Positions 12,453-45,200 of a stretch of DNA of 64,000 nt are shown here, piece after piece (the first letter of the stretch is position 1; each line of letters begins with the position of its first letter). The translations under genes and the position numbers were made by a program. Origin of the DNA: Polyangiaceae bacterium (GTDB lineage: Bacteria > Myxococcota_A > Polyangia > Polyangiales > Polyangiaceae); assembly GCA_965222375.1 (NCBI GenBank), contig CBDCTZ010000009.1:288001-352000 (forward strand). Direction: 5' to 3'. The notes under the pieces are model-generated. The model did not search any database and was not told the origin of the DNA. It saw only the letters and a list, made by a program, of their open reading frames with translations.

Positions 12453-13481
12453 TCACTCGCCGGCTTGTTCGCTTTCTGCCCAAGCCTCGCGCAGGATCTC
12501 CGCAACCGCCTCGTACAGGTCTTCGGGAATTTCCTCGCCGACCTCCAGCTCCGACAGTGCGCGCGCGACGGGTACGTCGCGGATTACTGGAACGGAATAG
12601 GCGCGAGCGGCATCCATCATGCGCCGGGCCAGCTCTCCACGCCCCTGCGCGAGGATCTTCGGCGCGCTCTCGTCCTCCTCCTCCAAGTAGTGGAGCGCCA
12701 CGGCCAAATGCGTGGGGTTGACCACCACAACGGTCGCGTCCTTCACGGCGTGCAGCGCCGCCCCCTCTGCCACTTCTTGGTGAGCCCGCTTGCGCGCCGC
12801 GCGTAGTTCGGGATCTCCTTCGCTCTCTTTGAATTCGCGTTTGACCTCGTCCTTGCTCATCCGGTGTCGTCGCTGCCAAGACCAGTGGACGATGAGCAAA
12901 TCGAAAGCTGCCAACCCCAGCCCGACCAGAGCCGCGATCCAAAGCAAACGCTTGGAGAGCACTCCGGCCACCACCACGGCCGACGCGCCGCTGCCGGTGG
13001 AAAACGATAGATCCGGCGTGTGATCGACCAGCAAGCGAACTGCCAAGTAGGCCACGACCAGCGCAGCCGCGAGGGAACGGGCCACCCCGATCAGCCGCTG
13101 GGAGCTGAAGATGTTCTTCATGCCCGAGACCGGATTGGCCCGGCTGAGATCCGGAGTGATCTTTTTGAACGCAACGACCCCGCCGCTCTGAACCAAGCCG
13201 ACGGCAAGCGCCGCGATGGACGCGGCGCCGATGAGGGGCAAGGTGAGGGTGGTCACATCCCGAGCTATTTCCACTGCCGATACACTCCGCATCGGCGACT
13301 CGATGCCGCGGACGATCAGTGCGCCGGCACGCGTGGCCGTCGCATGAAGCGCCGCTGGCGCGACGGCAACCGCAACCAAGAAGCCAAAGCCCTGGACCAA
13401 GGCCCCAGAAACCGGGCTGTCCCCATCCTCCCGCGCCTTGCGCAGTTTTTTCGGGGTGGGCTGTTCGGATTTCTCGCTCAT
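12453..13481 (-). CDS. Type III secretion export apparatus switch protein, SctU (EscU/YscU/HrcU)/FlhB family
   Basis: MSEKSEQPTPKKLRKAREDG, four TM helices, RMSKDEVKREFKESEGDP, autocleavage NPTH motif, EIPEDLYEAVAEIL. Confidence 0.93.
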   Translation of the reverse strand: MSEKSEQPTPKKLRKAREDGDSPVSGALVQGFGFLVAVAVAPAALHATATRAGALIVRGIESPMRSVSAVEIARDVTTLTLPLIGAASIAALAVGLVQSGGVVAFKKITPDLSRANPVSGMKNIFSSQRLIGVARSLAAALVVAYLAVRLLVDHTPDLSFSTGSGASAVVVAGVLSKRLLWIAALVGLGLAAFDLLIVHWSWQRRHRMSKDEVKREFKESEGDPELRAARKRAHQEVAEGAALHAVKDATVVVVNPTHLAVALHYLEEEDESAPKILAQGRGELARRMMDAARAYSVPVIRDVPVARALSELEVGEEIPEDLYEAVAEILREAWAESEQAGE

Positions 13482-28432: not shown

Positions 28433-29299
28433 CTAGAGCGCGGAAACTTGAACGTGGCTGCGATCCGCGGCGCGGGCTGCGGCGTCGGCCCCGGTGGGGC
28501 TTTCCGCGCGCTGCACGTCGCCCTGTCGGACGCCGAGCAGCCACAGCATCAGCTGTGGCGGTGGCAGACCCAGATCCGGCGATGCACTGAAGACTCGAGC
28601 CAGCTCCCGGCCGTAGCCCCGGGAGAGCTTCAATACGGACAGGCCGTCGAAGGCGCCCGCCTTGGGCCGACTCGCCAGTGGAAGCGCCAGCAGGCTCGCG
28701 AAGAGTAGGCGGTAGATCAGGAAAAGCCGCCAGCGCTGCCACTTGGATTTGTCGGCCAGGACGCGGCGGAGGAAGTGCACGTTCAGAGGAACGTGGAAGG
28801 CCTCGTCTCGGGTCAAGATGGTCAGCATGCGCCGCGCCTGCTCGTCTTCCACGTTGCGCAGCGCCATGCGGTAGGTCGTGGAGCCGATCGTCTCGAACAT
28901 CAAGTTCGTGAGCACGATGGTTTCCATGCGCCGCGCCCGGGCGTACACGCTGTACAGGGTTTTGGTGACGCGACCCATGGGGCGCACCTCGCCGCCCAGA
29001 CGCTTCAAGAAGTCCAGCAGCAACTCTCGGTGCCAGCCTTCCTCGTCGCCGTAGAGCTGCAGCACTTCAGCAAGCTCGGGGTCTTCGGCCCGGGTGCTTC
29101 TGGCCAGGGCGTGGGCCTGGGATTGGCCCGACTCTTCCGCCCGCAGCGCCGCGTTGAAGAAGCGCACCGCGGCGTCTTGGACCAGCGCCGAGTCGAAGCG
29201 GATTGGTGCGGTGCCGAGGCCCGCCTCGGTCCGCGTGCGACGGCGCTTCAGAGTCTGGAGCCACCAAGAAGTGGGACGGTCGTTGACGGGGTGTGCCAC
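28433..29299 (-). CDS. Ferritin-like carboxylate-bridged diiron protein
   Basis: LRAEES...DEEGWH...FETIG...DEAFH gives the E...ExxH...E...ExxH ligand pattern. Start taken at GTG 29299. Confidence 0.75.
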   Translation of the reverse strand: MAHPVNDRPTSWWLQTLKRRRTRTEAGLGTAPIRFDSALVQDAAVRFFNAALRAEESGQSQAHALARSTRAEDPELAEVLQLYGDEEGWHRELLLDFLKRLGGEVRPMGRVTKTLYSVYARARRMETIVLTNLMFETIGSTTYRMALRNVEDEQARRMLTILTRDEAFHVPLNVHFLRRVLADKSKWQRWRLFLIYRLLFASLLALPLASRPKAGAFDGLSVLKLSRGYGRELARVFSASPDLGLPPPQLMLWLLGVRQGDVQRAESPTGADAAARAADRSHVQVSAL

Positions 29300-29327
29300 T
29301 GAATGCCTCGGGTCAGGTGTCCGATTA

Positions 29328-30068
29328 TCAACCCTGGCGCTGCAGCGCAACGACGAAGAAACCACCGAAGAATCTCAAAGGGGAATCACATAGCGCTCGC
29401 TCGGCGGTGCGAAGCACGGTCCGTGCTACGGGCAGCCGCATCAGACGGGCGGCTGGGGTCGCGACGCGGATCCCCCGGGAGCCGACGATGTCGAGGCCTT
29501 CAGGCACGTGCCGGCGAATGCCCAGCGGCGTGTCGAAGCGGGTGTAGACCTTGTCTTCGTGGGTGCCTTCGGCAACCCGCCCTGCGGGCGCCAAACGTTT
29601 GGCCAGGCCGCGCCAGCTGTAGGGGTTGTAGAATTCGGCCACGACCGTGCCGCCGGGTCGGGTGACCCGGGCCATTTCCGACAGGGCGCGCCGAATGTCT
29701 GGGATGTGAGCCAGCACTTTGAAAGAGCACGTTACATCGAAGCTCTCGCTTTGGAACGGAAGCTCCGTGGCGGAGCCCTCTACGACCTCGAGGCCGCGGG
29801 CACGGGCCTTTTCCAGCATGCCCGGGGAGAGATCCACACCCTGGGCGCGACGGGCAAAGCGCTCGATGCGGGTCAGCACCAGACCCGTGCCACAGCCCAC
29901 TTCCAGCACTTCACCACCTCGGCCAAAGCGCTCGACGTAGCCGGCTTCGAGCTCGTCCAACAGTTCGTGATAGCCACCGGGATCGTTGTCGCCGCGGTGG
30001 GATTCATACCCATCGCTGAAGGCGTCGTAATACGCGCGGTTGGCGTCGTGGCTGCCTGAGGCGTCCAT
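29328..30068 (-). CDS. Class I SAM-dependent methyltransferase
   Basis: VLEVGCGTG, GVDLSPGML, LPFQSESFD, EMARVTRPGG. Confidence 0.92.
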   Translation of the reverse strand: MDASGSHDANRAYYDAFSDGYESHRGDNDPGGYHELLDELEAGYVERFGRGGEVLEVGCGTGLVLTRIERFARRAQGVDLSPGMLEKARARGLEVVEGSATELPFQSESFDVTCSFKVLAHIPDIRRALSEMARVTRPGGTVVAEFYNPYSWRGLAKRLAPAGRVAEGTHEDKVYTRFDTPLGIRRHVPEGLDIVGSRGIRVATPAARLMRLPVARTVLRTAERALCDSPLRFFGGFFVVALQRQG

Positions 30069-30203
30069 TTGGAGCCAAGGTGTAGCAGAATCGGGCCTCG
30101 CGCAAGCCCGGGCGCAAATTCCGCGCGGAGCCCCTTCGCCCGCGCTTTGAGGGACTTGGCCGGGTTGTCGGATGGCAGAGCGGCTGTGAGGGAAGTTGCT
30201 AGG

Positions 30204-31523
30204 CTACTTGCGAGCGATTCGGGCGTTCATGCGCTCGTAGGCGAGTTCTGTCGGCGTGATCTTGCGCTCTCGAGCTGCGGCCAAGAGCTCGGTCGTTTTT
30301 GCACCGCAGATTTGGGACAGGGAGGCATGTACTCGCTCGACGCTGGCCAGATCTGCGTAGGTGCGTTCCTCGTGGCCGGCGATGACCCCACCGACCGTGA
30401 TGGTCCAGTCGGGCTGTGTCAAAATGTCCCGTTTGGCCAGTGCTCTAGCCAATTCAATTTCGCCATCGATGCTATCGGCATCCAGAGTGTTGTTCGCCGC
30501 GCCGTAGATCAACTTGCAGCTCAGCTCCGGGATCTGCGCGTTGCCGATGACGCCGCCCAGGGCGCATGGCGCGAGCAGGTCGCAGGGCGTGGCAAGCAGT
30601 CCTTCCGGCTTCAGCAGCTCGAGGTTCGGGATGGCGGACTGCGCCATCTCGACCCGTCGCGGCTCGGGATCGAAGGCCGCAACCTGCATGCCTGCCAGTG
30701 CGAGCCGCTCCGCCAGCGCCAGCCCCACACTGCCGAGTCCCTGGACCACAGCCTTCTTGCCGTCCAACTTGGAGCTGTGCCACAGGAACGCTGCCGCCGC
30801 GCGGATGGCGATGAAGATCCCCTCGGCGGTCGGCGCACCGGTGGGGCCGAGCGGCGTCGAGGTGCCACACAGGATGTTCGGAGTGAAGCGCTGACTCAAG
30901 GCGTCGATCAGATCTCCGGATAGGCCTACGTCGGGCCCGGTCATCAGGTGGCCGCGGTCGATGCAGAAGCCCAAGAACCCCAGCCGTGCTTCGTCGCTGC
31001 CGGCAATGGGATCCGCGAACAGTGTCGTCTTGCTACCGCCATAGGGCAGTTCCGCGTGAGCGCATTTGTAGCTCATGGCCCGGGACAGGTTGAGACCTGC
31101 GGCCAGTGCGTGTCGTTCGTTCGCATTGCGGGGGTAGCGGCGGATGCCGCCTGCGCGCAAGGCGTGCTGCGGTCGGCGCAAGCCCAGCGTGCTCGAGTGA
31201 ATGTAATGTGCGACTCGGACCTGCAATTCCGGATGAACACAGAGCCACACCATTTCGTGATGACCGCGGCGCATCCCGTCGAGCAATGCGTCCATCGCCG
31301 CCCCGGCGCCTTGCTGGGTCAACAGTTCGCGGGTCTCCGTGTCGCCCAAAGCTCGAGCATCGCGACACGCGACCTGGTCCAGTGCATAGCGGCGTCCATA
31401 GCCGCGAAAGTCCCAGCTTGCATCGAAGTCCCGACTTGCGTTGAGAGAGAAGCCACCGCTGTCGTCCGTGAGGACGCGAAGGGTGGTCAGGTTGCCATCG
31501 ACCAATGCGTCAAAGAGCCCCAT
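30204..31523 (-). CDS. Glu/Leu/Phe/Val dehydrogenase family protein (leucine dehydrogenase-like) with N-terminal extension
   Basis: AGGIR, AMSYK, GGSK, GPDVG, QGLGSVG, PCALGG, GAANN. Start ATG 31523. Confidence 0.88.
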   Translation of the reverse strand: MGLFDALVDGNLTTLRVLTDDSGGFSLNASRDFDASWDFRGYGRRYALDQVACRDARALGDTETRELLTQQGAGAAMDALLDGMRRGHHEMVWLCVHPELQVRVAHYIHSSTLGLRRPQHALRAGGIRRYPRNANERHALAAGLNLSRAMSYKCAHAELPYGGSKTTLFADPIAGSDEARLGFLGFCIDRGHLMTGPDVGLSGDLIDALSQRFTPNILCGTSTPLGPTGAPTAEGIFIAIRAAAAFLWHSSKLDGKKAVVQGLGSVGLALAERLALAGMQVAAFDPEPRRVEMAQSAIPNLELLKPEGLLATPCDLLAPCALGGVIGNAQIPELSCKLIYGAANNTLDADSIDGEIELARALAKRDILTQPDWTITVGGVIAGHEERTYADLASVERVHASLSQICGAKTTELLAAARERKITPTELAYERMNARIARK

Positions 31524-31909
31524 GCGCCTGAGGGTACTCCTATTGTCGCAGTCCCGCGCGGCCGCGACCCACCGAGGTGCCGAGCGCATGCGCCTTGTTT
31601 GCAGCGGGTTGGTTCTGCCGCATCCCGTGTGGCGTGTCTTGGGGACCGCGAGATTGACGGTCGTCACGTGCCTGGCTCTTGCCGCGGCCCAGCGAGCACC
31701 CCCACCCAGGACCACTGTTTATGGATCTGCCTCTGGTCACGTTTTGTCGACTGGGAGCCACATGCTGGCAGAACTCGCCCACGGCTCCAGACGGAGTCTA
31801 TTTGTAAATGTCGGAATTTGTTGGAGAAATCGGGAAGCGACTCAGCAATCAGGTAGGCTCCGTCTTGGCCGGAGCACATCTTCGGCCATCGCACGTAGAA
31901 GGTGAGGCG

Positions 31910-33082
31910 ATGGAGCGAATCGGTGAGTACCTCGTCCGCGGGCTGGTCGGTGAGGGCGGGATGGGCAAGGTCTACGAGGCCGAGGAGCGCCTGAGCAAGC
32001 GTCGCGTCGCGCTGAAGGTGTTGCGCCCAGAGTTTTCCCGTTCGGAGGAGGGGCGCCAGATGTTCCTGAACGAGATGACGATTCTGGCGCACCTGGACCA
32101 CGCGAACATCGTGCGCTGCCTGGCCTGCACCGAAAGCGACGACCAGCTCGTGATGGCCCTCGAGTTCCTGGAGGGGCGAACCTTGCGTCAGGTGCTTGCC
32201 GACAACGGCGCCTTGAGCTGGGAAGACGCGGTCGGGATCGCCGTGCAGATCGCTTCGGCCTTGGCTGCTGCTCACCGCCAGCAGCCGCCGATTGTGCACC
32301 GGGATCTGAAGCCCGAAAACGTGATGGTCCTCGACGACGGCACGGTCAAGGTCATGGACTTCGGAATCGCCAAGGTGCTGCAGGCACTCAGCGGAACCAC
32401 GACCCATAGCGTGGGAACCCTGCAGTACATGAGCCCGGAGCAGATCGACGCGACGGGCATCGACAATCGAAGCGACCTCTACTGTCTTGGGCTGGTGATG
32501 TACGAGATGCTTTCCGGCAAGCCGCCGTTCGAAAGTGCCTCACCCCGAGAGTTGCTCAACGCGCAGTGCACGGAAAAGCCACCGGACCTACCAGAAGACG
32601 TGCGATCCGGATTGCCTCGGGGCGTCGAGCGGCTGGTATTCGAATTGTTGGAGAAATCCCCGGACGACCGGCCCGCCTCCGCGCGAGACGTGCTGCACGA
32701 CCTCGACCCATTTGCCCCATCCCTGACCCGCGCCCCGCGCTCCCGGGCCTCGGGGCACACCGAGCGCATGCCGGCGCAGCCCAAGCCGAGCGAACGCGAG
32801 CCCCAGGCCGCTGCCGATGACGAACAACCGGCAGCGCCGCCCGCCGCCAAGCCCTCGACATCCCAGCCGTCCAAGAAACCAACCCCTCGCGCTGATACGC
32901 TGGCACTGGTCGAAACCGCGACGGCGCCTCGGGACGTCAGCCGCAACACGGGCTTGATCGTGATCCTCGCGCTGTCCGTGCTTGCCGGCGTGGTGACCTA
33001 CTTTGTGCGAGCCAGTGGAGCCGACGAGACGCCTCGGGAGGCGCCGTCGGCCTCCGCCGTGAGCGGCGAAGAATTCAGGTGA
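31910..33082 (+). CDS. Membrane-anchored Ser/Thr protein kinase (intact catalytic motifs, minimal ectodomain)
   Basis: GEGGMG, VALK, HRDLKPEN, DFG, GTLQYMSPE, SDLY; C-terminal TM GLIVILALSVLAGVVTYFV. GGTGAGG RBS before ATG 31910. Confidence 0.93.
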   Translation: MERIGEYLVRGLVGEGGMGKVYEAEERLSKRRVALKVLRPEFSRSEEGRQMFLNEMTILAHLDHANIVRCLACTESDDQLVMALEFLEGRTLRQVLADNGALSWEDAVGIAVQIASALAAAHRQQPPIVHRDLKPENVMVLDDGTVKVMDFGIAKVLQALSGTTTHSVGTLQYMSPEQIDATGIDNRSDLYCLGLVMYEMLSGKPPFESASPRELLNAQCTEKPPDLPEDVRSGLPRGVERLVFELLEKSPDDRPASARDVLHDLDPFAPSLTRAPRSRASGHTERMPAQPKPSEREPQAAADDEQPAAPPAAKPSTSQPSKKPTPRADTLALVETATAPRDVSRNTGLIVILALSVLAGVVTYFVRASGADETPREAPSASAVSGEEFR

Positions 33083-36069
33083 GCGAACCGCCCGATATTC
33101 CGGGGCTCACGCCAGCTGAGGCCCTACCGGATTTCGGGCGTGCACGGCGCTTTCGCCTTCCCGAAGACGAAGAGCTGTGGCTGCTGCACGAGGCCGATCG
33201 CGCTGTGCAGCAGCGGTTGCTCGAATTGGGCGCTGTAGGGCTTGGGCGCTTCTCGCGGGGTGGGGAGACAGTAGATGAACTGTGGTTGGTGCGGGGTTCG
33301 GCCACGCCCACCTTGGCTGGCTTTCTCGAAACCTCCAAACAGGTGCCCGTCGCCGATGCTCTCGAGATCCTGAGCAGCCTGTTGCGCGTGCTGGTCTTCG
33401 CCGAAGACGAGGCGCTGTTCCCGGGGCCCCTGGTGCTGGCTCAGATCCCACTTCACGAACGCCGAGTGGAGGTCTCGGCGGATGAACTCGTCGCGAGCCT
33501 CCTCGGCCACGCGGAGGCGTCGCCCGCTGCGGCTTCCAGTCGCGCGTCGCCGCGTTGGACGCCTCCGGAGCAGTCCGAGGGCGCGCCTTGGAACAACGCT
33601 GCCAACCGCTACGTGATCGGGCTTTTGATGTACCGCCTCCTGTCCGGGGAGCATCCCTTCGGCGGTCGCGGACTCAGGTTGGCGCTGGAGGCTCGGGCCG
33701 ATCGACCACCGCCGCCCTTCACGCCCGAGGTTGCGGAGCAGCTTTCCCCAGGGCTGCAGTCGTTGTGCCTGCGCTGCCTCGAGCCGGATCCATCCCGACG
33801 CCCACGCTCCGCCCAGGAAATCCTCGACACCCTCGAAGACATTCTGAGCAGCTCCCAGAACCAAACGCCACCTCCCGCTACGTCGCAAAGCAGGCCGGGC
33901 GGCGAATCACCCGAGCCGACCTCACGGCAGGAGCCCCGAGCCCCGGCCTCGGCGCCGCCGCGAGCGGCTGTTGCGCCGGGGCAAGTCCAGGCGAGTCGAC
34001 GTTGGGGCGGCTGGTGGATGCTGCTGGGCCTGTGCACCGCCTTGGCTGCTTGGTGGGGGCTGTCGCGTGGGCGATCCACCGAGCCTCCGCCAGTTCGCGC
34101 TCGCGCCCCGTTGAGCGCTAGCGGTTTGATTTCTGCGGACTGCGCGAGCTGCCATCCACGTCAAGCTGGGGAGTGGCGTCGCTCCGTCATGGCGCACTCC
34201 GTGAAGAGCCCGTTGTTCTTGTCGCTCGAGATGTTGATCCAGGAGCAAGCCGGCAAAGACTTCGATTGTCCCAACGGCGCTGGGATCTTGCGAAAGGCCG
34301 ACGCACGCACCGCATGTCGGGATCGAAACAGTGGTCAATTGGTCACGGGCGCCGGCGGAGAACACTGGTGCGTCAATTGCCACGCCCCGGCGGACAATTT
34401 GGCTACCACCGTGCCCGCCTGGAATGGCCGAGAGCGCACCGACAATCCGACGCTCCGAGAAGCGCTCTCGGAGCGGGCCTTGGAAGGGATCTCGTGTGCG
34501 TTTTGCCACCAAGTGCATCCGCCCACGGCGGGCCGCGTCCCGGCGACGGAGCTGGGCAATCCGTTTTGGGTTTCCCCGGTCACAGGTCGACGCTTCTCGG
34601 CTCGCCCTGAAGACGCCACGGGTCGAGTCGGGATTTCCAACAGCGGCTACGCGCTCGATCTGCAAGCGCTGTTTGCTGGCGACAAGGTGCCCGGCGGCGC
34701 CCATGCGCGCCCGGATCCAGCCACCCGTGAGTATTTGCGCTCCAGCGACTTCTGCGGTGCCTGTCACGATGTGAGGCTCTTCGGCACCGACGTGATCGGC
34801 GTGAAAGAACGGGGTGAGCACTTCAAGCGCTTGAGAAACGCCTACAGTGAATGGTCGGCCTGGGCGGCGACGGAAGAGCGCGCCGGGCGAACCCCCGCCA
34901 GTTGCCAGGACTGTCACATGACGCAGTACCCGGGGGTCTGCACGGAAGAGGCGGGGGACCAAACCGCGGTGGCGTCGGGGCTGAGAGACTCCTGCCCGCC
35001 GGGAACCCACTTCCAGTCTCGGCCCCCCGGCAGCTACCCCAAGGGGCTTGCGGCAACCGGAGCCGTGAAGCCGCGCCGGCTGAGCCTGCACTACTTTAGT
35101 GGCGTGGACACGCCGCTGGATCCGGGCTTCGACCCGCGTTTGGCCGAGGGCGACTGGACGGACGTGTTTTCCATCCCCCAGTCCCTGAGTCGTCGCGCCA
35201 AGATGCTGCTGGCGGCATCCGTGGAGCTTTCGCTGGGCACGCCTCGTCTCCGCGGCAGGCGTCTCGAGCTGCCGGTCAGCATCGAGAACACCGGCGCTGG
35301 GCATCGCGTACCCGCAGGATTCAGTCAGGAGCGTGAGCTCTGGGTTCATCTGACGGTTCGCGACGAGCAGGGGCGCGCCTTGTACGAAGTCGGTCGCGTC
35401 GACCGCTCGGACCAAGACTTGCGCGACAAGGTGTTCCTGCGCGTCAACACCGACGACCGATTCACGGATGGCCAAGGTCGCCCCCAGGGGCTCTTCGGCG
35501 CGGACGTGGCAGATGGCCCGGATGTTCCGCGCTGGCAGCCCAATCCACAGCTGGGTGGGACCCAGTTCCGAGGGCTCGGCCTGATCAACTTCCAGAACGG
35601 CTTCTTACGATGCGTCGTGTGTATCGGGCGGGTGGATTTCGATGGCAGTTGTAGGGCGCTGCCCGGCCAGGATCGCGCGCGGGCAGACCGTTTTGCCGAT
35701 GGCAGCTACGACATCGACACGGGGGAGTGCCGGAGCAATCTATCCGGCGAAAACGCGCTCTTCGAAACCTACTTCCCGGTGGGTGCCCTCGACGCGTCTC
35801 GAGGCGTGTTCAAAGCGGCTGACGCCATCATCGATCGGCGCTCACTAGCTCCAAACCAGCCGGTCACCTACACCTACGATCTGTCCTTGTCCGGCAGGCC
35901 CCACAGCGTCGAAGCGCGACTCTTGTTCCGGGCGTTTCCCCCGTTTCTGATCCGCGCATTCATCGAATACGAAGCCAAGAAGCGCCCCGGGCGCTCCCTG
36001 ATTGGCCAGGCCGCCATGGACCGCCTGGAGATCGTCGAGCTCGCCAAGACGCGGGTGGTGCTTCCGTGA
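33079..36069 (+). CDS. Pseudokinase-TM-pentaheme cytochrome c fusion with a C-terminal Ig-like domain
   Basis: Kinase C-lobe remnants (SPRWTPPEQ, YVIGLLMYRLLSGEHPF, CLEPDPSRRP); TM WWMLLGLCTALAAWWGL; five CxxCH at 34141, 34369, 34495, 34753, 34903; NTGAGHRVPAG. Confidence 0.85.
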   Translation: MSEPPDIPGLTPAEALPDFGRARRFRLPEDEELWLLHEADRAVQQRLLELGAVGLGRFSRGGETVDELWLVRGSATPTLAGFLETSKQVPVADALEILSSLLRVLVFAEDEALFPGPLVLAQIPLHERRVEVSADELVASLLGHAEASPAAASSRASPRWTPPEQSEGAPWNNAANRYVIGLLMYRLLSGEHPFGGRGLRLALEARADRPPPPFTPEVAEQLSPGLQSLCLRCLEPDPSRRPRSAQEILDTLEDILSSSQNQTPPPATSQSRPGGESPEPTSRQEPRAPASAPPRAAVAPGQVQASRRWGGWWMLLGLCTALAAWWGLSRGRSTEPPPVRARAPLSASGLISADCASCHPRQAGEWRRSVMAHSVKSPLFLSLEMLIQEQAGKDFDCPNGAGILRKADARTACRDRNSGQLVTGAGGEHWCVNCHAPADNLATTVPAWNGRERTDNPTLREALSERALEGISCAFCHQVHPPTAGRVPATELGNPFWVSPVTGRRFSARPEDATGRVGISNSGYALDLQALFAGDKVPGGAHARPDPATREYLRSSDFCGACHDVRLFGTDVIGVKERGEHFKRLRNAYSEWSAWAATEERAGRTPASCQDCHMTQYPGVCTEEAGDQTAVASGLRDSCPPGTHFQSRPPGSYPKGLAATGAVKPRRLSLHYFSGVDTPLDPGFDPRLAEGDWTDVFSIPQSLSRRAKMLLAASVELSLGTPRLRGRRLELPVSIENTGAGHRVPAGFSQERELWVHLTVRDEQGRALYEVGRVDRSDQDLRDKVFLRVNTDDRFTDGQGRPQGLFGADVADGPDVPRWQPNPQLGGTQFRGLGLINFQNGFLRCVVCIGRVDFDGSCRALPGQDRARADRFADGSYDIDTGECRSNLSGENALFETYFPVGALDASRGVFKAADAIIDRRSLAPNQPVTYTYDLSLSGRPHSVEARLLFRAFPPFLIRAFIEYEAKKRPGRSLIGQAAMDRLEIVELAKTRVVLP

Positions 36070-38348
36070 GCGAGGCTGCTCTCGCCAAAGCATTTCGGTC
36101 GCCGTTCTTTCGCGGGCTGGATGATCGCGGGCGTCAAGACCTGTCGCTGTCCAGTCGAGTCATCGAAATGAAAGCGGGCGAGGCCTTCTATCAAGAGGGC
36201 CAAGCCGCGGATAACTTGTTCGTCGTCGTCTCCGGGGAAGTGGCCCTCGAAGCCGTGCGTCGGGGGGACGACAACCTGAGCACCCTGCGCCTGGCGCGCC
36301 GAGGTGATCTGTTCGGCGAAGAAGCAACGGTGGTGGGCGCTACGCGCCTGTCCAGCGCTCGGGCCAAGAGTGTTGCCTGCGCGGTCGAAGTGCCCTTCGC
36401 CGTCGTTTCGCGAGTCCGGGTGCGCAGCGGCGTTGCCGAGGACGTTTTGTCTCGGGAGCAGCGCGCCCTTCGCCGCGCGCTATCGAGGGATGCCCTGCTC
36501 GCGTCGGCGTTGGGGAGGGACTTGCCCGAAAGCGATCTCTCGCTGCTGCTCGACGCGGCGCAGTGGCGCCAGGTCGCCCGTGGCGACTTCGTGTTTCAGG
36601 CGGGGCAAGCGCCCGACCGGGCGAGCGTTCTGGTCGCGGGCCTGGTTCAGCTCCAGACCGAGGAAGGCGGTCGAACCAGGGTCAGCGCCTACCTGAGCCG
36701 CGGCGACATCTTGGGTGACGACGCGGTGCTCGGTGGTCGGTCTCACGAACTAACTGCCGTGGCCCTGGGGGATCTGCATCTGTTGTCGGTGCCGCGAGCA
36801 GCCCTGCGCAGCGCCGTGGACCGCAACTCAGAGCTGCTGCGTGGCTTGCGCCGAGTCGCAGAAAGCCGAGGCGAGGCGCAGCGAGGACTGGTGGAAGGGC
36901 GAAACGAAAACGCCACCGGCCATGTGCTCGGCGACTTGTATCGAATGCACATTGCACGCTCGCTCTTGGTGATCGACCAAGACAGCTGCGTGCGCTGTGG
37001 CCAGTGCTCCCACGCCTGTGGAGATGTCTATGGCGCCACGCGGCTGGTACGCCGGGGCGACAAGATCGTGACGTCCCTGAAGATGGCGGAAGCGCCGAGC
37101 AGTCTCTTGGTGCCCAACAGCTGCCAGCATTGCGAAAATCCATCTTGCATGATCGACTGCCCGACCGGAGCCATCGGGCGTGACCCCCGCGGCGAGGTCT
37201 TCATTCGAGAGGCGCTCTGCACCGGGTGCGGAGCCTGCGCCAAAGCTTGCCCTTGGGAGAACATCCGCATGGCGCCGCGCCCGGGCGGTGGCGAGGCGAC
37301 GGATTCCGCGGTGGGCACCAGCGCTCTGGTTGCCACCAAATGCGATCTATGTCGTGAGCGCGATGGGCCGGCCTGCGTGGCCGCTTGCCCGACCGGAAGT
37401 ATTCTGCGCGTCGATCCATCCCGAGACTTTACGGAGGTGCTTGCCCTGTTTCCCGGCCGCGCACCGGCGCCCACCCAGGACACCGCGTTGCCCGGGGCGC
37501 GGCGCTCGCTTCGCTTCGTGCCCCTCTTCGCCGGCTTGGCCTTGATGGGCATGGGAGGGGGCTTGCATGCCGGAGGATACCTACGCGCTGGCAGCGGGCT
37601 GGGACTGGTTTTTGGGTGGGTGTCGTTGCTTGTTTTGCTCTCCCTGTTTGCGTACGGGTTTCAAAAGCGCGGCTACCGTCGCATTGCACGAACCCGACAC
37701 AAGGGGGCCCGCGCCGAAGCTCTGGACTTGACCCAGGTGCCGACCCGACGTGCCTTCGACTGGCACACGTGGTTGGGCTTTTCCGCCCTGGGCGCCGTTG
37801 CGCTTCACGCGGGCCTGAAGCTGTCGGGCTCAGCGCATACCTTCGTGGGGACCATCTTTTGGTGCTCCAGCGCGTTGGGCGTGCTCGGTTTGGTGGCCTA
37901 CCGGGCGTTGCCCCGGGCGCTGACCCGCATCGAACGTCGCGGGCTGCTGCCGGAAGACTTTCGTCGCGAGCGTCAGCGTTTGCTCGACCGCCTCTACCAC
38001 GCGACTAGCGGCAAGAGCGAAGCCGTCAAACTGCTCGTGAGCCGCGTGCTCATGCCCTACGCTCGCGCGCCCTGGGGGGGCCTGGTGTTGGTCGCATCGC
38101 GCCGGTCCCTGCGAGAAGAACAGCAGCGGCTCAAGGGAAAGCTCGAGGGCATTCTGGGGGACAAGGCGGTGGCCCTCGAGCGCGATCTGGACGAACTGAT
38201 CAAGACCGTCGTGGAGATCCGCGCGCTGCCCGCGCGGCGAGTTCTGACCGCGCTGCTCCGGGGCGTCGTTCCCGCTCACGGGCTGACCCTGGGTCTGCTC
38301 GCCGTCTTCCTCGTGATCCACCTGATTGCCGTGTCGGGGTTGTTTTGA
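36066..38348 (+). CDS. Tandem cNMP-binding domains + DmsB/NrfC-type 4x[4Fe-4S] domain + membrane domain with putative di-heme b ligands
   Basis: FGEEATVVGATRLSS (phosphate-binding cassette); 16 Cys in CVRCGQCSHAC, CQHCENPSCMIDC, CTGCGACAKAC, CDLC...CVAAC; two H-X13-H helices. Confidence 0.88.
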   Translation: MSEAALAKAFRSPFFRGLDDRGRQDLSLSSRVIEMKAGEAFYQEGQAADNLFVVVSGEVALEAVRRGDDNLSTLRLARRGDLFGEEATVVGATRLSSARAKSVACAVEVPFAVVSRVRVRSGVAEDVLSREQRALRRALSRDALLASALGRDLPESDLSLLLDAAQWRQVARGDFVFQAGQAPDRASVLVAGLVQLQTEEGGRTRVSAYLSRGDILGDDAVLGGRSHELTAVALGDLHLLSVPRAALRSAVDRNSELLRGLRRVAESRGEAQRGLVEGRNENATGHVLGDLYRMHIARSLLVIDQDSCVRCGQCSHACGDVYGATRLVRRGDKIVTSLKMAEAPSSLLVPNSCQHCENPSCMIDCPTGAIGRDPRGEVFIREALCTGCGACAKACPWENIRMAPRPGGGEATDSAVGTSALVATKCDLCRERDGPACVAACPTGSILRVDPSRDFTEVLALFPGRAPAPTQDTALPGARRSLRFVPLFAGLALMGMGGGLHAGGYLRAGSGLGLVFGWVSLLVLLSLFAYGFQKRGYRRIARTRHKGARAEALDLTQVPTRRAFDWHTWLGFSALGAVALHAGLKLSGSAHTFVGTIFWCSSALGVLGLVAYRALPRALTRIERRGLLPEDFRRERQRLLDRLYHATSGKSEAVKLLVSRVLMPYARAPWGGLVLVASRRSLREEQQRLKGKLEGILGDKAVALERDLDELIKTVVEIRALPARRVLTALLRGVVPAHGLTLGLLAVFLVIHLIAVSGLF

Positions 38349-40375
38349 CCGAGCCTGCCTCGACCCCCAGGCCAACGCCGGCGTCGACTGCGGCGGACGA
38401 GCCGAGCGACGTGCGGCGCCTGAGCGGGCTGTATGCGGGTGCCATCGTGGCCGCGGTTGTGACCGTGCTGTCCGTGTTCATCAGCGAGGGGAGGGCGGCC
38501 CTCACGTCTCCCGGAGCCCTGTCGGCGCCCCACGTCCGCGCGGAGGTGGGGTGCGCGGACTGTCACTCCGCCTCGAAACCCGCCGCGGCTTGCGGCGAGT
38601 GTCACGGCCCACATCCCTCGACCCGCGCTGGCCATCAGGAGATGCGGCGCCAGGGCAAGATGTCCTGCATCACCTGTCATGACAGCCATCGCTCCGACCA
38701 AGGCGTAGCACTGCTCAAGAGCGGGATAGCCGAGCGTTACGGCAACGGTTGGGCGGTGCGGTCCAGCGAAGCAACGGGTTTTAGAGCCACCAAGCCGGTG
38801 TTCGTCGCCACCGTCGCTGCAAGCAAGTGTGGCGGCTGCCATCGCCTTTCGGATCCACGCGACGCGATCTTCACCTGCCTCGATTCCGCCACGCCCGGGC
38901 CAGCTGCGTCGCGGCCAACGCTGTGTTTCGACGAGCACCAAACCGCGGCCAATGCCCGGAAGAAAAAGGTCGCTCGAGACGGCGCATGGGAGGCTGCGCG
39001 CGTCGTGCTCAGCAATACGCCTGCCGCGCCGGCGTCGGGTCGCTTGGGCTGGCTGCTCTTGGGCCTCGGGGCGGGCGGCCTGGTCTGGACAGGACGCCAG
39101 CTCCAGTTGCGCTATCGCAAGCGGAGCGTAGGCGGGCGCCCCACCGGAGGCATGGTTCCCGCGCAAGTGGTGCGGCTGCCGCAGATCAACGCCGCCACCT
39201 GTCTGGGTTGCAACGCCTGCGTCGACGCGTGCCCCTACAACGTGATCGAAATGCGTTCCTACATCGCCGAGGTCGCGCGCCCGGACGATTGCTGCGGCCT
39301 GACCTTGTGTGAGCAGAAATGTCCCAACGGCTCTCTGGTCGTGCGCGAAGGCGAGCCCATCGTCGATCGCCCCCGGGTGGATGAGGAGCTTCAGAGCGCG
39401 GAAGTGCCGGGACTGTTCTTGGCCGGGGATCTCACCGGGCTGCCACTGATCAAGAACGCCATCAATCAGGGCGCGTATGCCGTGCGGGCGATTGCGAAAC
39501 AGCTTCCGAAGCGCAAGCGAGGCCGCTCGGAGTTGGACGCAGACGTCATCGTCGTCGGGGCGGGGCCCGCGGGGCTTTCGGCGGCACTCGAGGCCAAGAG
39601 TCAGGGCTTGAGCGTGGTCGTCGTCGAGCAAGGCAGCGTAGCATCGAGCATTCAAAGCTTTCCCCGGGGCAAGCTCGTTTTCGACCAGCCCTTGGACGTG
39701 CCCCTGGTGGGTGAACTCTGGTTGGAGGAATCCACCAAAGAAGAGTTGCTCTCCCAGTGGCTGCGCATCGTGCGTCGGCACAACCTGGACATCCGCGAAG
39801 GCACGCGGGTGATTCAGATCGCACCCTTTGAAGACGCGTCCGGGTTTCGAGTCCAAACCCGCACCGAAGATGGCAGCGAGAAAGAACTGCGCGGTCAGCG
39901 CGTCGTGCTCGCGATCGGGCGCCGGGGCACTCCCCGTCGCTTGGACGCACCCATCGAGGATGCTGCGCTTTCGCAGGTGTTCTACGGGATCTCGGACGCG
40001 TCGAGTTTCGCTGGCTCGAAGGTGTTGGTGGTCGGGTTGGGGGATTCCGCCTTGGAGGCGGCCGTTGCGCTCTGTCATCAACCCGATACCCATGTGACCG
40101 TCGTCCACCGAGGGCAGGATTTTCGTCGGGGCACCCCACGCAACATCGCGGCGCTCAAGACTGCAGCAGAGCGCGGCAAAGTGGACTTGAGGTTCGAAAC
40201 CGTGGTGACGAAGGTTTCCAAAGACCGCGTCACCCTGAGTACTCGTGGCGTGGAGAGCTCACTTTCGGTGGACGCGACCGTCGTCTTGATCGGTGCCCTG
40301 GCGCCCTGGCCCTTTCTAGAGCGGATCGGCATTCGTCGCCCCACCGAAGGGCGCAACTCGAACGGCGCAACGTAG
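38345..40375 (+). CDS. Tetraheme cytochrome c-TM-ferredoxin-TrxR-like FAD/NAD(P)H oxidoreductase fusion
   Basis: N-terminal TM; SPGALSAPH; CxxCH at 38552, 38591, 38666, 38828; second TM; CLGCNACVDACP; GLFLAGD; VVGAGPAG; VVGLGDSA; VHR. TTG start overlaps the previous stop. Confidence 0.87.
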   Translation: MTEPASTPRPTPASTAADEPSDVRRLSGLYAGAIVAAVVTVLSVFISEGRAALTSPGALSAPHVRAEVGCADCHSASKPAAACGECHGPHPSTRAGHQEMRRQGKMSCITCHDSHRSDQGVALLKSGIAERYGNGWAVRSSEATGFRATKPVFVATVAASKCGGCHRLSDPRDAIFTCLDSATPGPAASRPTLCFDEHQTAANARKKKVARDGAWEAARVVLSNTPAAPASGRLGWLLLGLGAGGLVWTGRQLQLRYRKRSVGGRPTGGMVPAQVVRLPQINAATCLGCNACVDACPYNVIEMRSYIAEVARPDDCCGLTLCEQKCPNGSLVVREGEPIVDRPRVDEELQSAEVPGLFLAGDLTGLPLIKNAINQGAYAVRAIAKQLPKRKRGRSELDADVIVVGAGPAGLSAALEAKSQGLSVVVVEQGSVASSIQSFPRGKLVFDQPLDVPLVGELWLEESTKEELLSQWLRIVRRHNLDIREGTRVIQIAPFEDASGFRVQTRTEDGSEKELRGQRVVLAIGRRGTPRRLDAPIEDAALSQVFYGISDASSFAGSKVLVVGLGDSALEAAVALCHQPDTHVTVVHRGQDFRRGTPRNIAALKTAAERGKVDLRFETVVTKVSKDRVTLSTRGVESSLSVDATVVLIGALAPWPFLERIGIRRPTEGRNSNGAT

Positions 40376-40617
40376 CTCCTGCAGTTCGAGTCGCTCTCCA
40401 CATTCGTGGTGCGTGCAGGGGCGGAGGTCACGAATCGCCCCGTCATCGCCACTAGATCTCGGAGGCACGCAGCAAAGCGCGGCCACCGAATCGCGTAAGT
40501 GTATGAAAATAAAGGACTAGGTCGCTCAGATCCGCGCGCGCCGTCATGCGTAGAAGTGAGCTGGGTGTAAGGCGGGCGGCGAACGCCCCGTTTTCGGTCG
40601 AAAGGGACAAACGCAGC

Positions 40618-42096
40618 ATGAAGGTCAAAACAGTTGGGCTCCTTTCCCTATGCGGCATGCTGCTTTCGAGCGTGACGGTTTGGTCCCTGACCAAAGATCG
40701 CGCGCTCGCGGAGCCCGAGCTGGGCTCGGCGCCCCTCGAGATCACTGCGCCGACGCCCCAGAGCGTCGGTGCGACCTTCACCGCCGGGCGCACCATCATG
40801 CTCGAAGGCCGGTTGGGCCACGACACGCTGCAGTCCGAAAAGGTCGGGGAGACCTTGTTGCTGCTCACCGCCACCGCGGACAAAGGCGCGGCGACCAAGG
40901 CGGCGTCGCCTCTGAACCTCTCGATCGTGATCGATCGCTCCGGCTCCATGAAGGGCCGCCGCCTCGCCAACGCTCTGGATGCCGCACGCGGCATGGTGGG
41001 ACGGTTGCGAGACGGGGATGCGGTCAGCGTGGTGACCTACAACACCACCACGGAGGCCATCGTCCCTTCGACGACCATCGACTCCTTCTCTCGAAGTCGC
41101 GTGTTGAGGTCCCTGTCCAATATTCGGGCCAGCGGAGATACATGTATCTCCTGCGGCATCGACGCGGGCATGGAGCAACTGCGGCGCCGCGGCGGCATGG
41201 TGGATCGCGTGCTGCTGCTCAGCGACGGTGAGGCCACCGCCGGCGTGCGCAACGTAGAAGGCTTCCGCCGCATCGGCTCTCGGGTGCGCAACATGGGCGC
41301 CAGCATCTCCGCCATTGGTGTGGACGTGGAATACAACGAGCGCGTCATGAGCGCCTTGGCTCTCGAGTCGAACGGGCGTCACCACTTCGTCGAAAACGCA
41401 GCGAAGTTGCCGGAGGTCTTCGACGCGGAGCTCAAGACTCTGGTGAACACCGTCGCAAAGGACACGGAAGTGGCCGTGCAGCTGGCGCCCGGGGTGACTG
41501 TGGCCCGGGTATTCGACCGAACCTTCCGCCAGGAGGGTGATCGTTTGATCGTGCCCTTCGGGACTTTCTCGGCGGGGGAAGAGAAGACCTTGTTGGTCAA
41601 GCTCGCCGTGGCGAAAGGTGCCGCTGGCAAGCGTCCCATCGCGGATGTGAAAATGACCTACGCTGATTTCGCTCAGGGCGGCAAAGGCACTTGCGTCGGC
41701 AAACTCGCCCTTGCTCTGACCGACGACCCCAGCCTGCTCGGCGGCCTCGATCCGGTCGTGCAAACCCGTCTGGTTCGCAGCGAGACAGCCCATGCCCTCA
41801 AGGAAGCGAACCGACTGTTCACTTCGGGCCGTACCGCGGAGGCGCGCAACAAGCTGCGCAACTCCCTCGATCAGGTCAATCGACAAAGAGAAGCCGCCCT
41901 TGCCCGCGCACCGAAGCCAAAGCGCGCTCGGCTGAAGGCAGATTTCGCGGATCAATCCGTGGCCCTTGGTGAAGCTTCGGAAGGATTCGCAGAAGCGCCC
42001 GCAGCGCAACCTGGCGCTGGTGCGCCTGCCGCAGCTCCCAGTCCGGCCGCACAGGTTCGGCGCAACGCATCGACCGCTGACGACTTCGCTTTCTAG
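40618..42096 (+). CDS. Secreted or membrane-anchored VWA domain protein (YfbK-like)
   Basis: N-terminal hydrophobic segment; MIDAS IDRSGSM, GDT, LLSDG. Start ATG 40618. Confidence 0.88.
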   Translation: MKVKTVGLLSLCGMLLSSVTVWSLTKDRALAEPELGSAPLEITAPTPQSVGATFTAGRTIMLEGRLGHDTLQSEKVGETLLLLTATADKGAATKAASPLNLSIVIDRSGSMKGRRLANALDAARGMVGRLRDGDAVSVVTYNTTTEAIVPSTTIDSFSRSRVLRSLSNIRASGDTCISCGIDAGMEQLRRRGGMVDRVLLLSDGEATAGVRNVEGFRRIGSRVRNMGASISAIGVDVEYNERVMSALALESNGRHHFVENAAKLPEVFDAELKTLVNTVAKDTEVAVQLAPGVTVARVFDRTFRQEGDRLIVPFGTFSAGEEKTLLVKLAVAKGAAGKRPIADVKMTYADFAQGGKGTCVGKLALALTDDPSLLGGLDPVVQTRLVRSETAHALKEANRLFTSGRTAEARNKLRNSLDQVNRQREAALARAPKPKRARLKADFADQSVALGEASEGFAEAPAAQPGAGAPAAAPSPAAQVRRNASTADDFAF

Positions 42097-42260
42097 CTTG
42101 GACTAACGCGGCATGCTGCCGCTTGCGAACGCGCCTGGCGCGTGAGACCGTTCAAAATCACCGACCCTGAGGGAGCTACCCCCTTCCGCCCAAGCCTGGG
42201 CGCGACGGCGGGCGCATGCCGAGCTGTTCGGTACCTAGGAAATCGAAACCGGAGCAAGTC

Positions 42261-45200
42261 GTGAACGAAGCCAAGAAGACGCTCGATCTCAAGAAGCTCG
42301 TGACGCGGGGGGTGCTGGCGCTCATGGCACTCGGCGTGGTTGTTGCCGTGATTGCCTACGTTGCAACCCGGAAACCACCGCCGGTCAAAGCATTGGCCAT
42401 CCAAGCGCGCCTGGAACTCGCTGCGGGTGAAGTCAGCGTGGACATGGGGGAGGGCCCTGCCCGTGCCGTGAGCGGCACGCCGCTCATGGACAATGCGCGG
42501 ATTGCCACCGCCGACGGAGCCCGCGCACTCGTACGGCTGCCAGATGGTTCGGCGTTGTTTATCCGAGCCGGGAGTGCCCTGAGCTTGGGCGCGGATTCCG
42601 TGAGCTTGGACAAAGGCGAGTACTTCGTGGATGCGCCCCCGACGGAACGAAAGCCAACGAGTCACGCCGTTGGGGAAGCGGTGGTCACCGCAGCGGAGGC
42701 CGGTTTCGATGTGCGTCGGGATGGCGACAGCGTAGTCGTCTACGTTGCGCGAGGCACGGCGACGGTCACGGGCAGGGGCGGACGCGCAGAAGTGAAGGCG
42801 GGTGAGCAAGCCACGATCAAGGGCGCCGACAAACCCGCTGTGTCGCCAGTGGCGTTCTGGGACGACTGGACCGGCGGCATGGCGGACTTTGGCTCGGGTG
42901 CGCTGCTTGCCGGTACCGGTGCCGGCTCGATCTATGGAGTCGACGTCGGGGCTTCGCCGGGTTCTCCGGCGCGCCGCCTGGAGATCAGCAAACAGTCGGT
43001 TCGCGCCGTGTTGCGGGAAGGGCTCTCGGAAACGGAAGTCGACCAGACCTTTTTCAACCCCGGCGAGCGCGCCGTCGAGGGTTGGTACTGGTTTTCCGTG
43101 CCCGAGGGCGCCAGCGTCACTGGCTTTGCTCTGGAAACCAACGGAATCCTGGTCGAGGGGGAGTTCAACGAACGTCGGGAGGCTGCGGCGCAGTACACCA
43201 CCGCGAAGTCGAGCGGTCACGCCCCGGCAATTCTGGAGTGGATCGATAGTCGAACCTATCGAGCGCGGATCTATCCGGTGCCTGCCGGTGGCAATCGTCG
43301 CGTCGTTCTGCGCTACATCGAAATGCGTCCGCCGGTGGGGTCGAAGCTGTCCTACGAATACCCCATGGGCGCCGGCAAGCCCGTGCGCATCGGCGAGTTT
43401 TCGCTGTCCGTGGACTTGGGGGACGCGGGCACCAAGATGAAGATTGCCACCCTCGCGGACGCGCGGGTGGAAAACGGCGGACGCCGAGTCACCATGCGCC
43501 GCTCTGGGTATACGCCCCGAGCCGACTTCCAGCTCGAGGCGGACCTGCCGAAGAAGCGCCCGCCCATGACCGTGGCGCGGTTTTCGGCTGGGGGCGAGAG
43601 CGCCGACTACGTGCTGGCTCGATATGTTCCTGACGTCGATTGGAAGAGCGCCAAGCAGCAGCGCGGTGACGTGGTGGTCGTAGTCGATACCTCTGCGGCG
43701 GGCGATGAGGCCGCGCATCAATTGAAGACGGCCGCAGCAGAGTCGATCCTTCGTGCCCTATCCGGCGAAGATCGTTTCGCACTGGTTGCCTTGGATGTGC
43801 GGCCCACCGTGCTCTATCCCAAAGATGGCCTCGCCAAGGCTGGCGACAAGGAGATAGCGAAGGCGCTGGAATCTTTGGCAGATCACGCCGTCGGGGGCGC
43901 CACGGATCTCGCCGCTCTCTTCGATGTGGCCCTCGGCCGTTTGCACGGCGCGGAGCAGCCCGCGGTGGTCTACGTCGGGGATGGCATCGCGACCAGCGGC
44001 GAAATGAGCGGGGAGCAGCTGGTAGAGCGCCTGCGCCGAGCCATTGGTACCTCCCGGGCCCGCTTGTTCACGGTCGGGGTTGGCACTGATGCCCACTATT
44101 CGCTTCTGGGCGAGTTGGCCCGTGCGGGCGGCGGCACGAGTTTGCGCGTCGACGAAGCCGAGCAGACGACGGCCCGCGCCCTGGAACTGGCCGCTGCGGT
44201 CAAGACCCCCACGATCACGGATCTCGAGATCGATCTCGGGGCTGGCTTGGACGAGCCGTTCTCCTCGGCCGCGGGCAAGGTCAGTCGCGGTTCCGAAGTG
44301 GTGGTGCTCGCCCGCACCCACCACGACATTCCCCGCATGGTCAAGGTGCGGGGGCGCCTCGGTGGCGAGAAGTTCGAAAAGGAGTACGAGGTCAAACGCG
44401 ACAGCAGCATCTTGAGCAGCTTTGTACCGAGGCTGTGGGCGGCTGAGTACGTGAAGCGCTTGCTGGGTTCCGCATCAGGACCCGAGGCCGAGCGCGGACG
44501 CATCGTGTCCCTAGGCGTGGACTACGGGTTGATGACGCCCTTCACGAGCATCTTGGCGCTCGAGAGCGAGTCCGCGTACATGCGCATGGGGATCCCGCGC
44601 AAGCGCACCAAACTGCGCGGCGTGCGCCTCGGCGCGCTCACCAAGGACGCAGAGATGCGTTTGGCCTCCCGGCACGCGGGGATCCCCGCTGCCAGCTTGC
44701 CGTTGGGTTGCAGCACGCTCGAGCGCATGGCCGGGGATTCAGAGCCAGCTCCTGCGGAGAATGTCAAGGGCAAGGCCTACGGGGTACAGGCAGCTCCGGC
44801 GAGCCCTGCGCCGGTGACTGCTTCGCCAGGCTTTGCGGGTAAGGACGACGAGTCTCGAGAGGAGGCCATGCCCGCCACTCAGGAGCCTCAAGCCGCGGCG
44901 GCTCCAGCGGAGGATTCCGTCGCCGAAGCCGAAGCGGATCAAGCTCCGATGAAGGCTCAGGTGGCCAAGAAGCCAGCGACGGGCCGCACCTATGCGAGAC
45001 CCAAGTATAGGCCGCGACCCAAGCCTTCTCTGGGCCCTGGGGCCTCGGGCGGCAAGGGGACCTTCGATGCGCCCAAGCGTCTCAACCGGCCCGCAGAGAA
45101 GAAAGAAGGCAAGCGCGGAGGGTTGGATCTTGCGAAACTCTCGGAGGGATTCAAACACTCGGGTCAGGTGGCTGTGCTGCGCACCTGCAGCGACACCTCT

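Follow-up and report, generated by a model that had tools for sequence, protein, structure and literature searches.

A conserved four-gene operon of Polyangia encodes a candidate cyclic-nucleotide-linked electron wire whose membrane domain resembles the PCC3/PCC4 and Ptd inner membrane proteins

What does a protein do that joins two cyclic nucleotide monophosphate (cNMP)-binding domains and a four-cluster ferredoxin to a set of membrane helices carrying four regularly spaced histidines? The question is raised by an open reading frame (ORF) at positions 36066 to 38348 of a 64,000-nucleotide stretch of DNA (here called the window) from a Polyangiaceae bacterium, whose genome is 10.6 Mb in size; the closest homologs of the protein are labelled Polyangiaceae or Myxococcales. 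A first-pass annotation of this ORF, made from its letters alone, read the membrane part as a NOX/ferric-reductase-like di-haem module and proposed a second-messenger-gated electron conduit analogous to NOX5. It missed the gene's membership in a conserved four-gene system. Taking that system into account, we consider it moderately probable, on sequence grounds, that the protein forms the core by which a regulated electron wire crosses the membrane; this wire would lead from NAD(P)H to periplasmic c haems, gated by cyclic nucleotide and linked to a kinase and a pseudokinase.

The four histidine codons named in the first-pass annotation (37764, 37806, 38277 and 38319, encoding H567, H581, H738 and H752) stand exactly where it placed them, and both pairs have the spacing H-X13-H. 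Spacing by itself is modest evidence, since two such pairs turned up in 1.2% of 20,000 shuffles of residues 480 to 760. The strong evidence for the four histidines is instead their conservation, which had been suggested as a check. All four are invariant in the 120 top homologs (the best 120 of 1648 proteins found among 8000 scored candidates) and are kept in 60, 60, 61 and 61, respectively, of 61 full-length 50%-cluster representatives, a subset of 145 new ones from a profile search. The remaining histidines of the region (H501, H545, H591 and H645) vary among the 120 homologs, in which G517, K534, R535, G605 and P616 are also invariant. Hydropathy rises above 1.5 in only three of the five presumed transmembrane (TM) helices (506-533, 592-615 and 729-760). 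In the AlphaFold models, with a confidence (pLDDT) of 88 over the full length and 93 over the TM part, four helices lie at 485-502, 511-535, 559-582 and 590-621, and the fifth is formed by the C-terminal end of a long helix, 705-756; those at 485-502 and 559-582 rest on modelling and on homology, not on hydropathy. By the positive-inside rule, basic stretches mark cytoplasmic loops, and because such stretches follow TM2 and TM4, these two loops are presumably cytoplasmic. TM3 and TM5 would therefore run from inside to outside, with H567 and H738 toward the inner face of the membrane and H581 and H752 toward the outer face.

As to the family of this domain, a search with a 69-member profile gave matches in 1661 clusters at E<=0.001 and in at least 42 of 251 genomes of the phylum, and 20 distant loci were taken from the 45 matches listed in those phylum genomes. 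Two WX3HX13H motifs are present in 18 of the 20 distant proteins and a [ST]GxxG motif in all 20. WX3HX13H and SGXXG are the motifs described for the 5-TM inner membrane protein (IMP) of the PCC3 and PCC4 clusters, which is predicted to hold two b haems (He et al. 2017, PMC5566968), and in five of the distant loci the IMP is directly followed by a 21-haem cytochrome, a haem number equal to the PCC3 median. The query has neither Trp and lacks the Ser of these motifs; among 113 Polyangia members, G605 occurs in 113, G608 in 69 and both Trp motifs in 12. Nevertheless, when the Polyangia domain was aligned with 17 motif-bearing distant IMPs by hhalign, the match was strong (Prob 99.15%, E 3.6e-19, 253 columns), the kinship to PCC3/PCC4 being tested here through those 17 proteins. 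The corresponding values were 2-7% for 19 ferric reductase domain (FRD) proteins, about 1% for 12 cytochromes b561 and 2-3% for 18 cytochromes b. Because the profile match reaches 99% for motif-bearing IMPs and at most 7% for FRD, the membrane domain appears to be a diverged PCC/Ptd-type IMP in which the Trp and Ser of the motif have been lost. In comparison with the PCC3/PCC4 IMP as described (PMC5566968), the H-X13-H pairs on TM3 and TM5 and a Gly motif on TM4 are shared, and five TM helices probably are too; Trp and Ser are mostly lost across Polyangia, and no porin accompanies the domain.

The NOX/ferric-reductase identity proposed earlier was not supported. PF01794 has no match in the genome at E<=0.01, and Pfam assigns no domain to residues 480 to 760, the TM part of the query. 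In NOX2 the histidines are 101/115 and 209/222, the second pair being spaced X12, and the NOX signatures include His119 and Thr178-Gly179 (PMC3591440). The TM3 pair fits NOX2, whereas the TM5 pair has X13 instead of X12; the equivalent of NOX His119 is a Lys four residues after H581 in the query and an Arg in the family consensus, which has no Thr-Gly at the start of TM4. The fold searches with the TM model listed no FRD or NOX entry in their top 50 rows, a result which excludes nothing; the long insertion of the domain dominates the matches. Once this insertion is removed, TM2 to TM5 align colinearly with FRD (116 columns, E 0.012), so that a loose FRD-like topology is plausible. In the account of the FRD superfamily (NOX, ferric reductases and MsrQ) given in PMC3591440, four histidines on TM3 and TM5 and a similar helix order are shared with our protein, which differs in its insertion, in having no TM6, and in being served by a TrxR-fold flavoprotein and six Fe-S clusters where FRD proteins have an FNR-fold domain. 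By analogy, the domain may work like an FRD, even though FRD membership itself is not supported by the profiles; a common working mode, in which NAD(P)H electrons would cross the membrane via two b haems, is likely.

The N-terminal part of the protein has Pfam matches to cNMP_binding, in two stretches (E 4.6e-28), and to Fer4_11. The first cyclic-nucleotide-binding domain (CNB1) has the canonical GE...R phosphate-binding cassette of the CAP/PKA-R cNMP domains, as had been read from the sequence; G84, E85 and R94 are kept in 113, 107 and 113 of 113 homologs and in 61, 51 and 57 of 61 distant representatives. CNB2, which was earlier called degenerate, is so only in part: the query does have His at position 227, as do 10 of the 113 homologs, but the family mostly reads G217-D218...R227 (113, 111 and 103 of 113). 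Foldseek with the full-length model returned the tandem CNB domains of PKA-R and PKG as its top matches, and nothing besides PKA/PKG CNB domains. The four-cluster ferredoxin stood as annotated, its 16 Fe-S cysteines being invariant in 120 of 120 top homologs and 61 of 61 representatives; it also matches the NCBIfam models for NrfC, HydN and DmsB, in each case below the cut-off. A search for shorter or split forms gave 12 proteins, mostly pieces of short contigs, and the viral contigs searched held no relative.

The gene is the third of four that overlap in series by 4 bp (Table 1). A genome scan confirmed 164 relatives, from which 80 loci were kept; partner counts refer to loci with enough flanking sequence. 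The pentahaem gene is adjacent in 59 of 60 loci and a kinase gene is present in 55 of 60 (49 on the same strand, 6 divergent), while the tetrahaem part occurs in every one of 69 loci and the flavoprotein in 68 of them. Nearly all of the 80 loci are titled Polyangiaceae, Nannocystaceae, Kofleriaceae, Labilithrix or unclassified myxobacteria/deltaproteobacteria, with one Ca. Eisenbacteria. In a single-protein query, matches came from 17 of 36 genomes sampled in the family and from none of 24 that belong to the order's other families, a patchy distribution; cultured strains with this porin-less form belong to Polyangium, Enhygromyxa, Plesiocystis and Paraliomyxa. A comparison of flanks reaching 8 kb at most brought out no further gene family conserved across the 80 loci. 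Searches with six putative porins taken from distant loci gave no match in these loci or in the genome, and the operon in the window has only 5- and 4-haem proteins and no decahaem cytochrome. Elsewhere in the same genome (G000:C14:816861-824694) lies a separate multihaem cluster, with ORFs containing 12, 12, 27 and 4 CxxCH motifs, which is a possible extracellular conduit.

Table 1. Features of the operon, its membrane protein and one flanking gene (window coordinates)
Feature	Position	Strand	Remarks
Ser/Thr protein kinase with C-terminal TM helix (operon gene 1)	31910..33082	+	Pkinase E 2.4e-56
Pseudokinase - TM - periplasmic pentahaem cytochrome c, C-terminal Ig-like part (operon gene 2)	33079..36069	+	5 CxxCH; PtdA-like architecture
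cNMP x2 - 4x[4Fe-4S] - 5-TM predicted di-haem b module, PtdE+PtdF-type fusion (operon gene 3)	36066..38348	+	760 aa; GTG start overlapping upstream stop
CNB1	36105..36425	+	phosphate-binding cassette intact: G84 (36315), E85, R94 (36345)
CNB2	36513..36830	+	G217-D218...H227 (family Arg); Pfam PF00027 at residues 168-254; site eroding
Four-cluster ferredoxin, NrfC/DmsB/HydN-like	36957..37421	+	16 Cys; PF13247 E 5.9e-11
5-TM PCC3/PCC4-type inner-membrane domain	37518..38333	+	presumed haem ligands H567 (37764)/H738 (38277) on the cytoplasmic side, H581 (37806)/H752 (38319) on the periplasmic side
Cytoplasmic helical insertion of ~105 residues between TM4 and TM5	37929..38249	+	also in distant relatives; His pairs ~150-180 residues apart
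TM - periplasmic tetrahaem c - TM - 2x[4Fe-4S] - TrxR-fold FAD/NAD(P)H oxidoreductase (operon gene 4)	38345..40375	+	4 CxxCH; Pyr_redox_3 E 1.7e-36
VWA-domain protein	40546..42096	+	VWA E 5.8e-17; frequent, not constant neighbour (46/80 loci)

Gene 1 has a longest ORF starting at 31808, with homology starting at the ATG at 31910, and its catalytic kinase motifs are intact in 52 to 56 of 56 homologs. The kinase-like part of gene 2, by comparison, is a pseudokinase, VAIK- and HRD-type motifs being absent from all 68 homologs. Its pentahaem part has candidate distal histidines H373, H542, H671 and H742 in 65, 68, 68 and 68 of 68 homologs, and these four, all outside CxxCH, align across a broad group of pentahaem and Ig-like proteins (hhalign Prob 100%, E 7e-44); searches of PDB sequences gave nothing significant for it. 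From what is described of MccSep, ExtKL and the PHC family (PMC13510729, PMC11976967), five CxxCH motifs and an Ig-like C-terminal part are shared with gene 2, and its four conserved distal His candidates may be compared with the four bis-His haems of MccSep. MccSep itself was rejected as an identity: NF040886 scores 17.6 bits against a cut-off of 250, the frame is open without an internal stop, and Phe748 presumably takes the place of the selenocysteine (Sec)/Cys site. This Phe, which follows a GHxxPxG motif and is invariant in 68 of 68 homologs, stands where, we presume, MccSep has its Sec. In gene 4, both nucleotide motifs of the flavoprotein are present and there is no CxxC in the flavin part, which is YpdA/FNR-like; YpdA/Bdr as such was rejected (TIGR04018 138.7 bits, cut-off 339.9). 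The tetrahaem profile matches the N-terminal haems of FHA-decahaem proteins and not the c554-type tetrahaems of loci L238 and L241.

The cofactor motifs and the fixed gene partners are evident from sequence and conservation, and it is from these that we infer haem binding, contacts, direction of flow, gating and the acceptor or substrate. In the route we favour, electrons would pass from NAD(P)H to FAD, 2[4Fe-4S], 4[4Fe-4S], the inner haem b, the outer haem b, the tetrahaem, the pentahaem and finally a periplasmic acceptor. The gene 4 flavoprotein would take them from NAD(P)H and deliver them, via its own two clusters, to the four cytoplasmic clusters of gene 3; two bis-His b haems, held by H567/H738 and H581/H752, would carry them across the inner membrane; and the membrane-anchored tetrahaem of gene 4 and the pentahaem of gene 2 would be the periplasmic receivers. 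Since only four conserved distal His candidates serve five haems, the pentahaem is the probable catalytic end, acting on some periplasmic substrate, and because no porin was found, the acceptor probably lies in the periplasm and not outside the cell. Binding of cAMP or cGMP, mainly at CNB1 and perhaps at CNB2, may open or close the step from flavin to Fe-S, while the kinase and the pseudokinase tail of the pentahaem may either control the wire by phosphorylation or report its state. An invariant threonine in the linker between CNB2 and the ferredoxin, T284, is a speculative candidate for a kinase target.

Distant relatives have the same parts in other arrangements. A multihaem cytochrome is nearby in 19 of the 20 distant loci and a homologous ferredoxin-flavoprotein stands beside the IMP in 17; in L141, where the latter is absent, a gene of FNR type (FAD/NAD/2Fe-2S) takes that place. 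In six loci (L133-L137 and L140) the IMP is fused to the ferredoxin and the TrxR-fold flavoprotein, in either order, next to cytochromes of 30 to 36 haems; by analogy, such a chain would be a one-chain counterpart of NOX. A two-gene minimal version of the wire is seen in L233:5922-10276 (G238:C311), where a cNMP-FeS gene precedes one in which the IMP is directly fused to a homologous pentahaem (E 1.6e-31), a fusion which argues that the C terminus of the IMP is periplasmic and that IMP and pentahaem are linked. Flavoprotein, cNMP2 and FeS domains occur in one chain in L123, L166, L232 and L236-L241, so they presumably work together; in L123, L166 (Sphingobium), L232 and metagenome loci this chain goes with an IMP and a decahaem, and L123 and L232 have FHA as well. 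The same cNMP2-4x[4Fe-4S]-IMP fusion as ours is found in L138:6600-12469 (G141:C25), followed by an FHA-repeat-hexahaem-TM-ferredoxin-flavoprotein, with a putative porin and a 16-haem cytochrome on the opposite strand, and L242 has L138-type parts in split form. In a 43-row IMP tree, the nearest sisters of the Polyangia IMPs are L138 and L242 (support 95/88). The tree also divides cleanly into cNMP-linked and unlinked sides (26 versus 16 rows, 100/99, on long branches), a split that is in part built in, since the cNMP-FeS query was the source of many rows. The cytochrome-flavoprotein partner in L138 and L242 carries FHA domains; phospho-signalling parts therefore recur, as FHA readers in these nearest sisters and as kinase plus pseudokinase in Polyangia. 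Distant pentahaem relatives are also found on Shinella and Nitratiruptor plasmids (L164:6143-11614 and L165:6329-11279), in iron-uptake clusters that run imelysin - small membrane protein (DUF4405 in L164) - pentahaem - FTR1.

Among named systems, the closest by description is the ptdABCDEFG operon of unknown function, in which a cNMP-domain 4Fe-4S protein is followed by a TM 'ferric reductase-like' protein, along with a pentahaem bearing a beta-sandwich at its C terminus, an FAD/NAD(P) oxidoreductase and more multihaems (bioRxiv 10.1101/2023.11.21.568154). Its 5-, 4- and 10-haem plus porin content is, so described, that of PCC4, where a PF13247 gene lies upstream of the IMP and the two are annotated as one gene in one genome (PMC5566968). 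Like clusters of the PCC4/Ptd type, the operon studied here brings together a pentahaem, an FAD/NAD(P) oxidoreductase, a cNMP-FeS protein and an IMP, and by gene content and the Ptd descriptions our protein is a PtdE+PtdF-type fusion. From what those sources give, the Polyangia form differs in having no porin and no decahaem, in the fusion of the PtdE and PtdF counterparts (with two CNBs and four clusters), in a pentahaem that carries a pseudokinase and TM helix and follows an active-type kinase gene, and in a flavoprotein fused to the tetrahaem. The available text of He et al. has no mention of cNMP or kinase parts. A nonahaem cluster of Ferrigenium straubiae, reported as transcribed in all conditions tested, likewise combines a membrane-anchored multihaem that bears a phospho-signalling domain with 5-TM and [4Fe-4S] proteins, although as separate genes and with FHA in place of kinase and pseudokinase; its authors gave the 5-TM protein no redox role (bioRxiv 10.64898/2026.01.22.701106). 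In the open-access literature we found no description of the porin-less, kinase/pseudokinase-coupled form. The Polyangia system is a real, conserved variant of named systems (PCC3, PCC4 and Ptd), all of them uncharacterised.

Several observations weigh against the wire as we have drawn it. The pairing of the histidines is presumptive. The best fold match of the TM model, to a two-haem bundle of four helices designed de novo (7ah0; Z 8.1, root mean square deviation [rmsd] 2.7, 103 aligned), favours the wire but weakly, being inside the chance range for helical bundles; Foldseek with this model gave 0 matches at E<=0.001, the VIA fold-search matches were mostly coiled coils, and a PDB sequence search with the TM profile gave nothing significant (2 matches, E 0.12). 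CNB2 is eroding, R227 being down to 34 of 61 in distant representatives, and although the 14 class III cyclase matches in the genome favour the reading, none of them is on this contig. The loci are related Polyangia rather than independent samples; 5 of 60 have no kinase, and Minicystis rosea (L046) has genes 3 and 4 with neither pentahaem nor kinase in the 8 kb upstream, so these two are not strictly needed in cis.

Such absences bear on the possibility that the system is a redox receptor, in which the pentahaem would sense or turn over a substrate and its redox state would be read through the TM pseudokinase and the kinase, the wire only resetting the pentahaem or running inward to NAD(P)+. 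A pseudokinase-TM-ectodomain protein beside a TM kinase predicted from its motifs to be active is a receptor-like layout, and FHA domains occur in sister systems; yet some 17 conserved redox centres would be a large investment for sensing, and many relatives, beyond those five loci, lack a kinase in the stretch examined. We think this reading quite unlikely. Only a little less doubtful is a quinone-coupled module, in which the di-haem domain would pass electrons to and from the quinone pool and connect that pool with the cytoplasmic FeS/flavin arm and, separately, with the periplasmic cytochromes. Quinone exchange was proposed for the PCC3/4 IMPs in the text of He et al. (PMC5566968), and it would suit the likeness of the FeS domain to NrfC and DmsB, partners of quinone-active subunits, as well as weak Ni_hydr_CYTB matches in 13 of 69 members and a fold match to hydrogenase cytochrome b (Z 7.0, rmsd 4.9, 129 aligned). 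The low profile matches to cytochromes b561 and b speak against it, as does the NAD(P)H flavoprotein that is constantly paired with the domain or fused to it in the distant loci (17 of 20), a donor without quinone. The quinone and NAD(P)H readings do not exclude each other.

Far less probable than either is a cNMP-gated enzyme that would, like NOX5, make superoxide or else reduce ferric iron directly at its outer haem. The helix direction and the His placement on TM3 and TM5 are as in FRD, weak Ferric_reduct matches (best E 0.0028) occur in 10 of 69 members, an Atlas cluster is named 'Ferric reductase like' (0.87, below the reliable range), and the imelysin-FTR1 iron-uptake setting of distant pentahaem relatives also speaks for it. 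Against this, besides the profile values and the absent NOX signatures, Pfam finds no in-chain FAD/NADPH dehydrogenase domain in the ORF, and the outer face, being paired with or fused to c-type cytochromes, would feed these instead. What survives of the earlier proposal is a predicted di-haem-b module with invariant histidines, fed by a four-cluster ferredoxin and linked to cNMP, with flavin/NAD(P)H input and periplasmic multihaem outputs supplied by its neighbours; a NOX5-like role is not supported.

Around the operon, no Rfam match and no promoter-like site was found, and terminator-like sites are at chance level; a defence role was set aside, as PADLOC gave only generic kinase matches. Downstream, the VWA gene is followed by a FecR-VIT-VWA-TPR gene (together 40546-46481; the second in 7 of 80 loci). 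Divergent from the operon (28433-31715, minus strand) are Glu/Leu/Phe/Val dehydrogenase-like, methyltransferase and ferritin-like genes, the dehydrogenase being present in only 4 of 80 loci. Further away, 12456-13481 (minus strand) encodes an export switch protein of the SctU/FlhB family (283 bits, below the cut-off), and a scan of 24 window ORFs recognised no further gene of type III secretion.

In bacteria, electron-transfer chains are usually controlled at the level of gene expression. If a cyclic nucleotide together with a kinase/pseudokinase pair did gate a transmembrane wire directly and allosterically, this would be a new control principle. One tentative extension, which we regard as possible rather than probable, is that the wire is a signalling hub, in which cAMP or cGMP would switch the flow from NADPH to a new pentahaem enzyme whose state is reported or controlled by the pseudokinase tail and the kinase; the whole PCC3/PCC4/Ptd IMP family might then consist of NOX-like conduits that are coupled to NAD(P)H through a TrxR-fold input, and not of quinone-exchange subunits. 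The PCC3, PCC4 and Ptd clusters are candidate conduits of the iron and nitrogen cycles. The Polyangia form is compact, with donor, membrane and acceptor parts in three polypeptides, and it occurs in cultured strains, so that the question of NAD(P)H versus quinone is directly testable there.

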